A stretch of 64,000 nt of DNA from Obrimoposthia wandeli (Eukaryota): NCBI GenBank assembly GCA_977020255.1, contig CDROCS010002093.1:434001-498000 (forward strand), in the 5' to 3' direction. The notes beneath the pieces were generated by a model. It saw only the letters and a program-made list of their open reading frames with translations, ran no database searches and was not told the DNA's origin. This document shows positions 45,392 through 50,823 of the stretch, piece after piece. Position numbers and translations under genes: made by a program. Within the stretch, counting starts at the first letter, position 1; each line of letters opens with the position of its first letter.

Positions 45392-45499
45392 ATGTTGCCA
45401 AAGAAAAAGTTTGAATTTCAGAATTTGAATTATAATAAATTGATTTCAGAAAGTTCAAGTTGTTAATTGGTTTTTAATATGCGACCTCAAGACAAAAAA
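45392..45499 (+). repeat. 108-bp inverted repeat, left arm
   Basis: Reverse complement of 50716-50823 with 3 mismatches. Confidence 0.95.
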
Positions 45500-46265
45500 C
45501 ACTTTAGCACCGACACCCGCAGCTAATAACTCTAAACGCGGTATACTTTTTACTTTTACAGGTGCCACTTTTGATTTTAACGCTAAGAAACTTACTACTA
45601 TTTTTTCCGCTTCTTCATTTTTCAAGTAACCTACTGTTCCATACGCCTGCTCAGAAACGTCTACAAATATATGTATCGAACATTTACTAGCTACTCCAGC
45701 CCGTATCCATCTGGGAACTTTAACCTTATTCAGTAACTACGTCTTCTACCCAATGGATTATCTCTTTCTTAATACCCCCTTCCACTTTCTCATCCCATTT
45801 CTTTCCTGAAAGCCATAGCTCCTGAATAATAATCTTCGACCTTATGACTATCGGACTAGCAAACCCAAATGGGTCAAATACATTTGACAGAAGACTTAGA
45901 AATTTCCTCTTTGTAATGGTCGTTAACATCTCTAAATTCTTCGTCATTTCAAAAACGTCTGCCTGCGCGTTCCACGCCACTCCTAACGTCTTTATACTTT
46001 GCATCGTTTCGCCATCCGCAATTTGTAAGACCTTCGCTTGATCTGCTGTGGCGATTTGTTGACTAACTCGGTGATTGCTACTTAGCCTCTTTTTGGCACT
46101 CATTCCCGCACCGCCCCACACTTGCAGTAGGTCTCGTTGTAATTGTATCGCCTCCTCGACTGACGGTACCGAATCCAAACTGTCATCCATGTATGTGGAC
46201 TTTAATATCGTCTCGATAGCCATATCACATACTCCCACGAACTTTTCAGTGTTTATTCGAGTCAC
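45500..46265 (-). pseudogene. BEL pol fragment, RT C-half and RNase H (Peptidase_A17-like)
   Basis: YMDD, KTLGVAW, FDPFGFASP, WDE; RNase H part continues in another frame to 45500. Confidence 0.9.
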
Positions 46266-46273
46266 TAACTGTG

Positions 46274-47155
46274 CTAAGAATGGTGACGCATTGATCCCAA
46301 AATTACCCGATTAAATTCTACTTGTTTGCGATCTTTCCATAGAAATCTCAGCAACGTTTTATCTTTCTCTGCCACCTTTATCTGTAGATACATCTCCAAT
46401 AAATCACAAACTAATGCTACCGCATTTTTCCTGAATCTTAATAAGATCGTGACTAACTCTCCTTGCAGCTTCGGCCCACAATGAATTAAATCATTCAAAC
46501 TTGTGCCTTGCACCTCCGCCGCCGCATCAAACACTATTCGCACCTTTGTTGTATCCTTTTCTCGCTTGACGACCAGAAAATGTGATAACAACCACTTTGT
46601 CATTTTTACTTCTTCTTCCGGCATCTTCCTGATATAACCTTTCTGGATATGGCCCTCGATGACGGCCATGTACTCCGATCTCAACCGTGTGTCCTTGTCT
46701 AATCTTCTCTCCAAACTCTTCTGCCGCTGGTTTGCCATTTTATCATCCCATCTCACATTAACGTTCTCATTTATCCACGGTAGGCTGACTTCATACCTTC
46801 CTTCAACTTCTTTTATTCTGAGTCGCGTTTCTTTTAATACCTTTTCGTCGTTATAACTTAACTTGCTTTGGAAAGTTGGTACTGCTTCTACTTCCCAGAA
46901 TTTTCCTATATTAAATTCCTCCGTTTCGATCTTGGTTCCAAAATAGTTGTGGGCCAAATTCGTGTGTTGTCTACCTCTATTAGCTCCTCGTACCTGTTCA
47001 ATACAAGTCCATCCCAACGGTGTCAATCTTGTTATCGGTACACATGGTCCTCCTCTCACTTCTCTAAGGGCACTATGCAATTCGAGGTTGTCTGCACCCA
47101 GTAATAATTCAACTTTTCTCTTTACATTTATCGCTGGGAATTTTATACCCTCCAA
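46274..47155 (-). pseudogene. BEL pol fragment, protease C-terminus and RT N-half
   Basis: ELLLGAD, TPLGW, RIVFDAA, GPKLQ, LRFR, DLLEMYLQI, LRFLW. Confidence 0.9.
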
Positions 47156-48256
47156 ATGCCTTCACTTTTTTGCTTCTACTGACCAATTTATTACCTCTAA
47201 GTCCCCGGTAATCTCTGGTACTGTTAATGCGTTGATCAGCTTCACATATTTTTGATCCGTGCTCCATAATTATATGTTAACTTCAACACAGTCCATCGTT
47301 TCCACGTTTCCTCCAATAACCCCCACCCGAATATTTTGTTTTTGTCCTGACACTTACCGTTCATGACAAATCCTTACTAATATATGAGCGTGTGCTGATC
47401 ACCAATTCTTGGCCTCTATGCCGTACCATAACCGGTACGGTTCTTAATGCCAAGAATGTAGTTTCTTTTCTTGTCCATCTTGTGAAGTAGGATTGTGGGC
47501 GCGTCTGATTACTACTCTCTTCATTCACATGCAATATCCAATGGTGTTTATCGGTGCAATTCCTCATTTTACACAACTTATCCACCTTGCATTGTTTTAC
47601 GTAATGATTATTTCGCAGACAATTTCTACATAAACTTTCCCTTTCAACCAACCGGTGTCTCTCTGCTACGGATAATCTCTGCAATTCTTCACATTTGTCT
47701 TTGTAATGCTCCTTCTTACACCTTAGACACTTTATCTCTCTCCCCCTTCTTTGAAATTGTCCAGACATCATTCTATCTTTTTGCTTTTCCGCTCCTACGA
47801 AAGTTTTTGCTCTTTCACTATTTTTATATTTTGGTGCTTCTCTGCTGCAACTCGCTATTTCGTTGGCTATTCGCCAACTTTCGGCCTTTTGTTGTATCTA
47901 TTCTTCTAAAGATCTTATACTCTTTTGTCTATCTCCTGCTTCTAACCATTCTGACCATGCTACTGTTCCTAACATTGGTAGTTTCTGTAGCAATTTTTCA
48001 CATAGAAAATCACCCCCTAATTCCTCCTCTTTTTTTAGTGCTCGTGCTCGTACGGTATATTCTTGTAATAGTTGGCTATACTTATCCAAATCCCGATAGT
48101 TGTTCCACCTTATTGACCTGGACTTTTCCACCTTTTCCTTCAACTGTCTATAATTCATGTCCATCCCTCCGTATCTTACTGACAATATTTCCAGCGCTTC
48201 ATCATAGCTTTCTGCTGAGTATACCAATCTATCAATTAACCTTAATTTTCTCTTAT

Positions 48257-48889
48257 TTATCCACCATTGACTGGTCGATCACTGTTAAATATAGCTCGCC
48301 AGTTTTCGAACTTTTGTACTTCTCCTCTAAAAATTGGAAGCTGAATTTTCTTCAACTGACTTACTCCTGTGTTTCTTTGGACTATCTTATCATTGAGCTT
48401 ACCTCGCTTCGTGTCCTCTGTCCTTTCCCATACTTTCCCTTGTATTTCGTCGAATTTGTTTTCCATTTTCTTCTGCTCGCTAACCCATCTTTCTTCTTTT
48501 CTGCTGTCATCCTCTTGAAACGCCGTCTCTATCTTTTTCTCATAGATTTCTGTTAATAACATATACATCTCTTCATAGATGTTCTGTTTTTCTTTTTTCT
48601 TTTTCTTATCATCTTCCAGCAAGAAATTGTTTATCGCAATATTGAAGTCACACGTGGTTAGTTCATTTTCTTCAATTTCAGACCCTCCTTTTAGGCGTAG
48701 TATGACGTATATCTTGTCATTACTATAAATTATATCTTCCTTATGTACCTTTTTCCCTTCTCTATATAGCCAAAATTCCACCTCCTTTAATTTTAACCGT
48801 ATTTCTACCTCCCTACAGGCTATATCACCCGAATGGTTTTTACTTAATTCAACCATTATATCTGACCCGTTAAAAAACAAAACATACCA
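48257..48889 (-). CDS. BEL Gag N-terminal fragment with ubiquitin-like domain ending LRLKGG
   Basis: WYVLFFNGSDIMVEL...WLYREGKKV...IYSNDKIYVILRLKGG, in frame with the Gag LPIF motif. Confidence 0.65.
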   Translation of the reverse strand, partial: WYVLFFNGSDIMVELSKNHSGDIACREVEIRLKLKEVEFWLYREGKKVHKEDIIYSNDKIYVILRLKGGSEIEENELTTCDFNIAINNFLLEDDKKKKKEKQNIYEEMYMLLTEIYEKKIETAFQEDDSRKEERWVSEQKKMENKFDEIQGKVWERTEDTKRGKLNDKIVQRNTGVSQLKKIQLPIFRGEVQKFENWRAIFNSDRPVNGG

Positions 48890-49913
48890 CGAAGTATTTA
48901 TTTTTCCATCTTCATCGCAACTTTCCCACTCTAGATCCTCATCAAATATTCTGTCGCTGCGATAGACTCTGCATCATTATTTTCTATACTTCTTACCAAT
49001 GTTTTAATCACTTCCACCTTCTGAGATCAGACATTGATCTTAGATCCCATCCGGATAAAAAACTTTATTTATTTTTATTGTAAAACTCTCTCCTTTTATG
49101 ACTGCATTTATCTTATGTTTTATATGTCTGATGGTGTTCTCGCTTCCCATTACATCAGACATCCTTTATAGCTCCATTTATCTGCACCTTGAAATCTTCT
49201 TGTTCCTCCGTTTCCTGTCCTAGCCTTCGTACCACATTCGCTTTCTTTATTAATTTATTTCTTAGATGTTTCTCCTTCTTTTTTATAATAATTCGTGGCA
49301 ACGCCCTTAATATCTCCCTCGCTTCTCTCTTCTTATAGTGCACTTTATTTAGTGCTTTCAACACTTCACCCTTTTCTTGTTGACTTACTAATCTTAGTAT
49401 GAATTCTGAATTTTGTTCCTGTTTCCTCTACCTCTTCCTTATTCATTCCCCATATTAATTTAAACATTACTCTGATTTGATCCCCTTCTTCTACCAAGTC
49501 ATTTTCCTCTAACTTCTGCCCTTTTCCCGTTCGTCTCTTGCTTTAATACACTTCGTGTGTTCCATAAAGCGGACTCTATCCCCAACAATCAAAATATAAG
49601 AGGGAGGAGGATGTTTTTCCTCCTTATTATTTTTATTTTGTGTCTCTATGCTCCATAACCCCTGCTTATCGCCTAGTTGTTCTAGAGCACAGGAACTATA
49701 GGAACAAGAATTTTTATTTAATTTAATACCACAAAGTCTAACACCAAAATCAAATAAAAAATTATCACAAGTTCGTCCTTCATCATCAACAATCATACCC
49801 TGACTTCGTAATTGTTTCAAGGATTTGACACTTTCCCAACTGGAACTACTACTGTACTTTTCTTTTCCTCCACGCTTTGGTTCTTCGTCGTGTTCAAGCC
49901 CAGGCTGATGAGG

Positions 49914-50736
49914 TCATGGCTGTTTTTTGATTTTATTGTAATCTATTCTAGGAATTAATTGCAGAAATATTGAATTTTGTGCATCCTCCACATCAATGAC
50001 TTTGGCTAAATCATCTTTGTATACACCTTTGATCACTCGAACCCATTGACTGGCTTGTAATTTTTTGAAACATCAGTCATCTCAGTGATGGATACCATCT
50101 TCAAGTTGTGAATCCCACGATACAAGTGACGAATATCTTCAATTGCCTTTTTTACGTGTGTTTCCTTAAATCACTCTATGTAGATAAATCCCGAAACATT
50201 ATCCTTGGAGAAGGCAGACTTTATTAGCAATGGCTAAATTGTATACTGGGCGTTAATAAATTTATTCATTAATGTCAGTACTGCATTTTTTTTTCTTCGC
50301 CTCTATTACAAGTCACTTGCCACAAATTAGGGTCTTTGACCCCGGGGAGGCACTTTTGCTGAGAAATAGCTGATGCCATTGCATTGCCAGTTCCAAAGTC
50401 ATCGGCATCATTTTCTTCATAACGATTTCTGTAATAAGCATTATTGTCATATTGAAGATGTTGCATTGCATCTATCACTTCAGCTTCGTCGTCTGGATGA
50501 TCAATAATATCAGCATTTTCACAATCATAATCATAGTCTAAGATATAGCCTCGATCAACTTTTAGTCCTTCAATAACATCTTTTCCAACTCGCTTCATAG
50601 CGTCCGAGATAAGATCACCAATACTACTATCCCCATTGGCAGATATAGTAGCAACTTGCGCAATCTCTTCAATTTCTGCGTTGGCGTCTTCTTCATCTTC
50701 AAGCTCTGTTACCAATTTTTTGTCTTGAGGGCGCAT
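49914..50736 (-). pseudogene. SUPT5H: SPT5 (SUPT5H/Spt5) pseudogene fragment: acidic N-terminus, NGN, start of KOW1
   Basis: [24 protein letters not shown]; after a frameshift LTLMNKF..PLLIKS..GFIYIE*FKETHVKKAIE..MVSITEMTDV; then WVRVIKGVYKDDLAKV..QLIPRIDY. At least 2 stops and 2 frameshifts, no introns. Confidence 0.9.
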
Positions 50737-50823
50737 ATTAAAAACCAATTAACAACTTGAACTTTCTAAAATCAATTTATTATAATTCAAATTCTAAAAT
50801 TCAAACTTTTTCTTTGGCAACAT
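50716..50823 (-). repeat. 108-bp inverted repeat, right arm
   Basis: Reverse complement of 45392-45499 with 3 mismatches. Confidence 0.95.

Follow-up and report, generated by a model that had tools for sequence, protein, structure and literature searches.

A 64,000-nt stretch of the Obrimoposthia wandeli genome (NCBI GenBank assembly GCA_977020255.1, contig CDROCS010002093.1, positions 434,001 to 498,000 of the forward strand; hereafter the window, numbered from its first letter) contains a 5.4-kb block at 45392–50823 that is bracketed by inverted arms and that an original prediction, made from the letters alone, had read as either a Pack-type DNA transposon with a captured host gene and a retroelement piece or the scar of a rearrangement. 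We assign the block, with good confidence, to one defective minus-strand copy of a BEL/Pao retrotransposon, running from a 5′ long terminal repeat (LTR) split by a Gypsy element through a spacer, a primer-binding site (PBS), a leader, a ubiquitin-like end with two glycines (GG) and Gag to a Pol cut in RNase H. These parts follow one another in the window, the arm and the leader's cargo of host gene pieces (HSP60 and SPT5) are multi-copy, and the Pol groups with those of BEL elements that carry ubiquitin ahead of Gag. The features of the block and its borders are listed by position and strand.

44030–45288, no strand: single-copy host flank, covered at depth 43 by a single contig that matches the window without a difference; no BEL integrase match.
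45289–45494, plus: probable complete BEL LTR of 206 bp, inverted (TGT...ACA, TATAAA at 45318, AATAAA at 45434), its last 103 bp belonging to the left arm.
45495–45499, plus: five of the six bases of the right-side LTR–PBS spacer, then the RNase H junction, without a PBS.
45500–47398, minus: BEL pol (protease, reverse transcriptase, RNase H), interrupted by stops and frameshifts and truncated shortly before RNase H ends; integrase, polypurine tract (PPT) and a normal 3′ LTR are absent.
47364–48682, minus: broken BEL gag with DUF1759 and a triple Cys-His box.
48683–48754, minus: putative degenerate ubiquitin-like C-terminus with LRLKGG right ahead of Gag, aligned to the ubiquitin–Gag junction of the relative P0320.
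48755–49597, minus: leader segment of unassigned source, about 30–60× single-copy depth, without a significant Pfam, PDB or Atlas match.
49598–49706, plus: antisense PPT, then a TGTT...AACA stretch; a high-copy island about 112 bp wide.
49707–49919, minus: leader segment of unassigned source; the SPT5 profile stops at 49920, and there is no PDB match.
49920–50540, minus: SPT5 fragment (acidic N-terminal part, NGN, start of KOW1; human residues ~136–319), intronless, with stops and frameshifts.
50541–50670, minus: piece of mitochondrial HSP60, interrupted by a 16-residue gap that keeps the frame, and joined in frame to SPT5 (PDB E 1e-10; tblastn).
50703–50714, minus: PBS of the type found in related BEL loci (12/14 match, L058 variant), through which the open reading frame (ORF) reads.
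50715–50844, minus: spacer (50715–50720) and the remaining 124 bp of the BEL 5′ LTR, which ends in ACA at 50721, holds the ATG at 50736 and includes the right arm.
50845–52744, minus: 3′ LTR of a large Gypsy element, a later insertion, probably into the BEL 5′ LTR.

The inverted arms and the primer-binding site

The arms (45392–45499 against 50823–50716) are 108 bp long with mismatches at 45419, 45447 and 45484, as the original prediction had counted, and a self-BLAST of the window returned the pair as an inverted match of 132 bp (E 6e-48) with no third arm copy in the 64 kb. Their inner edge is sharp, and the outer side fades into a looser match up to 45368/50843. The arm pattern had 0 matches in metagenome and viral contigs, and an Rfam scan of 44000–53000 gave 0 matches.

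Among the 80 related BEL loci kept of 309 from metagenomes, 28 share a single PBS type, which in 26 follows CA and a 2–5-nt spacer. The best match to it in 48600–50900 lies at 50714 on the minus strand, with 12/14 positions and the same variant base as in locus L058, and the runner-up reaches 10/14 (4 mismatches); the chance that such a match falls no more than 3 nt from the inner arm edge is ~3e-5. Since the PBS match follows ACA and a spacer, the right arm reads as the end of a BEL 5′ LTR plus spacer, with the ATG in U5 and the frame continuing through the PBS, and it shows the BEL/Pao arrangement in which a PBS comes after the CA end of the 5′ LTR. By their sequence, the arms are therefore best described as BEL/Pao LTR sequence and not as terminal inverted repeats (TIRs) of a transposon. 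The right arm does provide an ATG in frame with the N-terminal part of SPT5, as predicted, and every junction from this ATG through the PBS, the two HSP60 parts and SPT5 is in frame. PBS matches at 49002 and 49496 were far weaker and were ruled out, as was a poly(A)-tailed retroposon as the source of the arm, the A run being the LTR–PBS spacer.

The Gypsy LTR begins 21 bp outside the right arm, where about 20 bp had been estimated. Contig ends at 50842, beside this start, are loose, which marks a true LTR end for Gypsy, and the loose ends before 50842 resemble what is presumably a tRNA-Met-type PBS. The suggestion that Gypsy interrupted a longer terminal inverted repeat stands in part: a longer repeat was probably split, and that repeat is a BEL LTR, not a TIR.

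On the left, a complete LTR probably extends outward to 45289, its 206 bp being bracketed by five related LTR pairs of 165–341 bp (two further pairs are cut by contig ends). The left-flank contig stops at 45318 in two runs, which, assuming 31-letter words, fits a repeat start at 45289, and a variant at 45319 would fit equally. A start at 45393, giving a 102-bp LTR, is a possible alternative because the LTR of L058 opens with similar letters. The first letters of the left LTR (45289–45299) resemble the Gypsy LTR start (52735–52744) at 10/11 positions, and the wider likeness is not above shuffles. The HSP60 fragment between the right arm and SPT5, the PBS and the longer left repeat were all absent from the original prediction.

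The left arm adjoins the RNase H truncation as predicted, 50 of the 92 relatives' alignments that reach below 45560 stopping exactly at 45500. Its terminal A run is probably spacer and unlikely to be RNase H, because the codon next to the truncation encodes A, S or T in 45 of 51 relatives and never F. The junction is no more than 1 nt away from the PBS boundary. A tblastn search with relatives gave no BEL integrase match left of 45400. Within the body, the Pfam Peptidase_A17 match runs to profile position 152/162, the triple Cys-His box in Gag is a BEL/Pao feature (PMC554778), and the order protease, reverse transcriptase, RNase H is kept, with the integrase that follows in BEL/Pao deleted. 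Two direct LTRs with a PPT ahead of the 3′ LTR, another BEL/Pao hallmark, are missing; the second LTR is inverted and lacks a PPT, and we therefore class the block with rearranged derivatives of BEL and not with canonical elements.

An HSP60–SPT5 chimera in the leader

The frame that opens at 50736 runs for 153 codons before its first stop in the window copy and contains the HSP60 piece (E 1e-10) followed in frame by SPT5 (E 2e-7), the rest being disrupted by stops and frameshifts. The NGN domain matches human SPT5 at E 3e-16, the start of KOW1 matches at E 1e-9, and the homology, ~630 bp without an intron, reaches 49920 by profile; one weak tblastn extension into 49919–49629 was dropped by the profile. 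The closest SPT5 relative is a 1004-aa protein (44–59% identity), and the next named ones come from Macrostomum and Cichlidogyrus. A word search with the NGN piece gave 0 significant among 13 candidates, and no Atlas search scored above 0.86. LTR-mediated retrocopies can show microsimilarity at their switch points; at the fusion point here, GYI of HSP60 meets (G/N)YIL of SPT5, a likeness at the protein level.

Copy number was estimated from contigs of four runs of one sample, placed on 44030–51450 at 85% likeness; the depths are sums over contigs and give rough copy numbers only. Relative to single-copy depth, the BEL core bins reached 441–724×, the leader bins 32–59×, the SPT5 bins 5–44× and the HSP60 bin 49–99× (four runs), and the arm bin 16–57×, or 31–67× for the 211-bp arm region alone in the deepest run. 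Arm and cargo are multi-copy, with tens of copies. The predicted capture of a host gene piece is borne out, and the piece was amplified; the situation that would have spoken for a local rearrangement, an arm present only here and at the parental SPT5 locus, does not apply. Two features of LTR-mediated retrocopies, partial host coding pieces (here chimeric) inside an LTR element and further rounds of copying, are present.

The copies also differ among themselves. A single contig spans 49950–50136 at depth 744, 17× single copy; other copies of the SPT5 part have insertions or deletions relative to the window at both frameshift sites, and a common variant lacks the 48 nt of 49902–49949, a multiple of three. 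A contig of single depth joins the HSP60 end (50541) to 49662 through 11 other letters without SPT5; manual translation of these letters in the HSP60 frame retains 2/4 of the next HSP60 residues. This contig suggests a sister form lacking SPT5, and with it stepwise capture.

Farther along the leader, depth rises to 13,940 at 49675 against 918 at 49729, ~320× single copy, over the island at 49598–49706. This island is probably the start of another LTR family; more speculatively, it could record an older jump like that of the left arm. It was rejected as the LTR of the present element, since no PBS follows it, its PPT is on the opposite strand, and it is unlike the arm. Another copy joins 49701 to 48282 in gag.

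A BEL lineage with ubiquitin ahead of Gag

The LRLKGG motif lies 112 residues ahead of the DUF1759 motif, a distance that is 122–147 in 7 relatives; none of the 43 control rows had a GG-type motif 100–140 residues ahead of it. Among the best 120 of 416 Pol relatives, the closest was P0289, which has ubiquitin ahead of Gag and a second partial ubiquitin upstream; P0320 carries an HSP90 piece and ubiquitin, P0409 ubiquitin, and P0290 and P0291 keep its GG end. In addition, ubiquitin stands ahead of Gag in 3 of the 80 related loci (L001, L004 and L070). In P0367, a BEL protein breaks off in RNase H and continues into CPSF73-like domains, perhaps through an artificial fusion of gene models.

A quick 117-row tree put the window into a set of 10 rows (SH-aLRT 89) that included every one of the five GG rows; the remaining four rows lack the Gag N-terminus. 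A careful tree of 40 rows, including 27 hand-picked plain-Gag rows (24 from the quick tree and 3 loci), placed the window with 7 ubiquitin rows and 5 rows without the N-terminus on a 13-row side (branch support 81/96) that held none of the 27 plain-Gag rows, and made it sister to P0289 (91/85). With moderate support, these trees suggest that the window Pol groups with ubiquitin-bearing elements.

Among the relatives, L004 has an unbroken 2547-aa frame (509–8152) that begins inside the LTR and comprises a GMF piece (E 2e-4), TRAF RING and zinc fingers (E 4e-16), the PBS, ubiquitin and Gag-Pol. In five of 27 loci with a PBS, the frame extends more than 300 codons past it; the three of these with 85–539 open codons upstream of the PBS are the ubiquitin loci, while 5 and 18 codons are open there in the remaining two. 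In L001 (1–290), a tandem array of 12-residue units makes up the LTR part of the open frame. A ubiquitin–Gag leader in BEL was unreported in the titles and abstract openings of the literature searched, subscription papers and Repbase aside, and the word ubiquitin is absent from the main text, supplements aside, of the surveys PMC3118150, PMC6238403 and PMC5408684.

Capture and expression of the cargo

Taking these observations together, we consider it likely that pieces of HSP60 mRNA and then of SPT5 mRNA entered the leader by template switching of reverse transcriptase and were amplified with the subfamily. For expression, we lean towards a scheme, drawn by analogy, in which translation begins at an upstream start, here in U5, and would read the PBS and the captured pieces in one frame until host deubiquitinases cut after GG and free Gag; because of this cleavage, the leader would need only to remain in frame. 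A broader proposal, which we put forward tentatively as having somewhat less than even chances, is that the BEL lineage serves as a heritable platform for exon shuffling: the ubiquitin cleavage signal before Gag and a translation start in the LTR that reads through the PBS would let host mRNA pieces enter in frame, those of HSP60 and SPT5 here and of HSP90, polyubiquitin or GMF with TRAF in relatives, and be released as mosaic proteins on expression, and the reverse transcriptase would also jump onto strong-stop DNAs to yield inverted-LTR copies.

Several observations weigh against parts of this account. The PBS match by itself is expected 0.48 times in 64 kb (39/100 shuffles), and the 6-nt LTR–PBS spacer exceeds the longest measured in relatives by one. 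HSP60 was joined with SPT5 in 0 of 80 related loci and 0 of 287 proteins compared, and the window leader is 2032 nt long against 544–778 nt in L001, L004 and L070. The ubiquitin domain of the window was undetected (no Pfam match, PDB E 1.3, clade profile iE 0.84, Atlas 0.81), so that it is either degenerate or reduced to its tail, and a single-sequence model of the ubiquitin-like part reached a predicted local distance difference test score (pLDDT) of 43. The branch uniting the ubiquitin rows is supported below star level (bootstrap 81). The host pieces of L004 lie within its LTR and not in the leader, and L004 and other metagenome contigs could be collapsed or chimeric. Lastly, 45368–45391 and 50824–50843 are strongly diverged between the two LTR copies, a patch unexpected from a single event unless a small templated replacement occurred or two different templates were used.

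Origin of the left junction

In Ty1/Ty3, second-round plus-strand DNAs that lack the PBS form once the tRNA has been removed (PMC5371799). We think it reasonably probable that the left arm arose from such a PBS-less plus-strand strong-stop DNA, comprising the whole LTR and the spacer and joined backwards at RNase H. The likeness is an LTR copy that ends where the tRNA was removed, without a PBS; the difference is that here the product is known from a genomic junction alone, and the available part of PMC5371799 describes no BEL case. Joining could have taken place by a template jump inside the particle, so that a cDNA bounded by U3 on both sides was made and then integrated, or the strong-stop DNA could have served as a patch at a chromosomal break. 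In yeast, cDNA patches occur at breaks.

The main rival for this junction, which we regard as unlikely, is that two independent BEL insertions of the same subfamily lay tail to tail in inverted orientation and that a deletion left almost nothing of the left insertion and cost the right insertion its integrase and 3′ LTR. It would leave the account of the cargo as it is and change only the origin of the left arm. No unusual reverse transcription is then necessary, the divergent LTR patch and the missing duplication at 45393/50822 are accounted for, and the subfamily has tens of copies; however, two members of a small subfamily are needed within a few kb of each other, and the break within 1 nt of the PBS boundary must be put down to chance.

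A rearrangement scar, the second option of the original prediction, is still a possible origin of the arm pair. In the form of a chromosomal replication or repair error, in which BEL lost its 3′ half and the break was filled by templated synthesis from the 5′ end and flank of the same element, in inverted orientation, it is very improbable. A single local event would suit the 97% identity and the loose likeness beyond the 108-bp core at both sides, but it gives no reason for a break at the PBS boundary, and the outer 24 bp are much more diverged than the core; the bin depth, tens of copies, cannot be divided between core and outer part.

The weakest candidate, marginally behind even the repair error, is a Pack-type non-autonomous DNA transposon with TIRs of ~110–210 bp that took up HSP60, SPT5 and the BEL piece and moved as a unit: its arms are 97% identical, arm and cargo copy numbers are of similar magnitude and multi-copy Pack-TIRs are known in animals (PMC8277862), but the inner arm edge bears ACA, spacer and PBS next to LTR signals including TATA and poly(A), identity falls off outward, and the cargo is intronless and sits in the BEL leader, where BEL relatives hold theirs. 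Six choices of boundary all lacked a target-site duplication (TSD), although three of the six touch Gypsy, whose far side lies beyond the window; L058 has a TSD of 5 bp. Like the Pack-TIR Ssk-FB4 (Tan et al. 2021, PMC8277862), the block holds a host gene piece flanked by inverted repeats in several copies; Ssk-FB4 differs in having true TIRs, TSDs and capture at the DNA level, and that study, in its available part, left out intronless copies as retroduplicates. By the Pack-TIR criteria given there, the element does not qualify, its terminal repeats not being the TIRs of a DNA transposon of the Pack-TIR/Pack-MULE kind, and in its workings it resembles an LTR-mediated chimeric retrocopy. The block illustrates how the remnant of a retrotransposon with inverted LTRs can be mistaken for a Pack-type DNA transposon.

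Two further candidates were rejected. An autointegration inversion has a processed LTR end at the junction, with PPT and integrase past the inverted LTR; here the spacer is kept, and single-copy DNA without PPT or integrase lies beyond the left LTR. DIRS-type elements with inverted terminal repeats have a tyrosine recombinase and a DIRS-type reverse transcriptase; 48 frames scanned held no recombinase, and the Pol is that of BEL.

Comparison with known systems

The nearest parallel to the capture is the Pao element BATUMI, in which the two-gene retrocopy CG4799_CG11924 arose by LTR-mediated retroposition (Tan et al. 2016, PMC5131818): there too, incomplete mRNAs from two genes were fused in a BEL/Pao element and amplified further. 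The BATUMI retrocopy displaces part of the element's ORFs, whereas here the cargo lies in frame ahead of a ubiquitin-like end and Gag, in an arrangement found repeatedly within a BEL lineage. In cytopathogenic pestiviruses, ubiquitin insertions let host hydrolases free the next protein, as established by experiment (PMC8310069, PMC13517609), and there too captured ubiquitin lies behind other host mRNA pieces as a signal for host hydrolases; those cases are sporadic isolates of an RNA virus, and ours is a retrotransposon lineage in which cleavage would be expected by analogy. In Burro, a giant Gypsy of planarians, the LTR polyprotein likewise contains domains resembling those of host proteins, TRAF-like and SUMO-like parts among them (PMC6431247), but Burro is Gypsy and not BEL, its domains come after Gag or in accessory ORFs, and a frame through the PBS is not described in the available text.

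The findings point to a BEL lineage with a built-in tolerance of captured host coding sequence, parallel to the pestivirus ubiquitin insertions. If the exon-shuffling proposal is true, it would offer a testable route for making and amplifying mosaic proteins in invertebrate genomes, some perhaps dominant-negative on transcription elongation or immune signalling.

Other features of the window

The large Gypsy element (53040–63876) encodes several RING fingers and a dual-specificity phosphatase past the integrase, as well as two long ORFs without assignment. Its LTR is 1.9 kb long and contains a 55-bp tandem array; the last ~375 bp (50845–51221) reach 53,000–114,000× single-copy depth against ~650× in the next bin, and a very abundant short derivative therefore has the same end. 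Exons of a SHANK-like host gene (FERM F0, ankyrin repeats) occupy 2093–16546, a range that includes a 311-bp direct repeat (7507–7817 and 15168–15477, 97% identity, 7.66 kb apart). A weak Tc1-type helix-turn-helix match lies at 19660–20073 (E 0.002), and pairs of inverted repeats resembling miniature inverted-repeat transposable elements at 34413–34824 (30 bp), 18702–18888 (27 bp) and 26617–31229 (56 bp), the last enclosing a 16-bp tandem array at 29865–30469. A near-perfect hairpin at 41049–41233 has 83-bp arms that are 98% complementary and a 19-nt loop.

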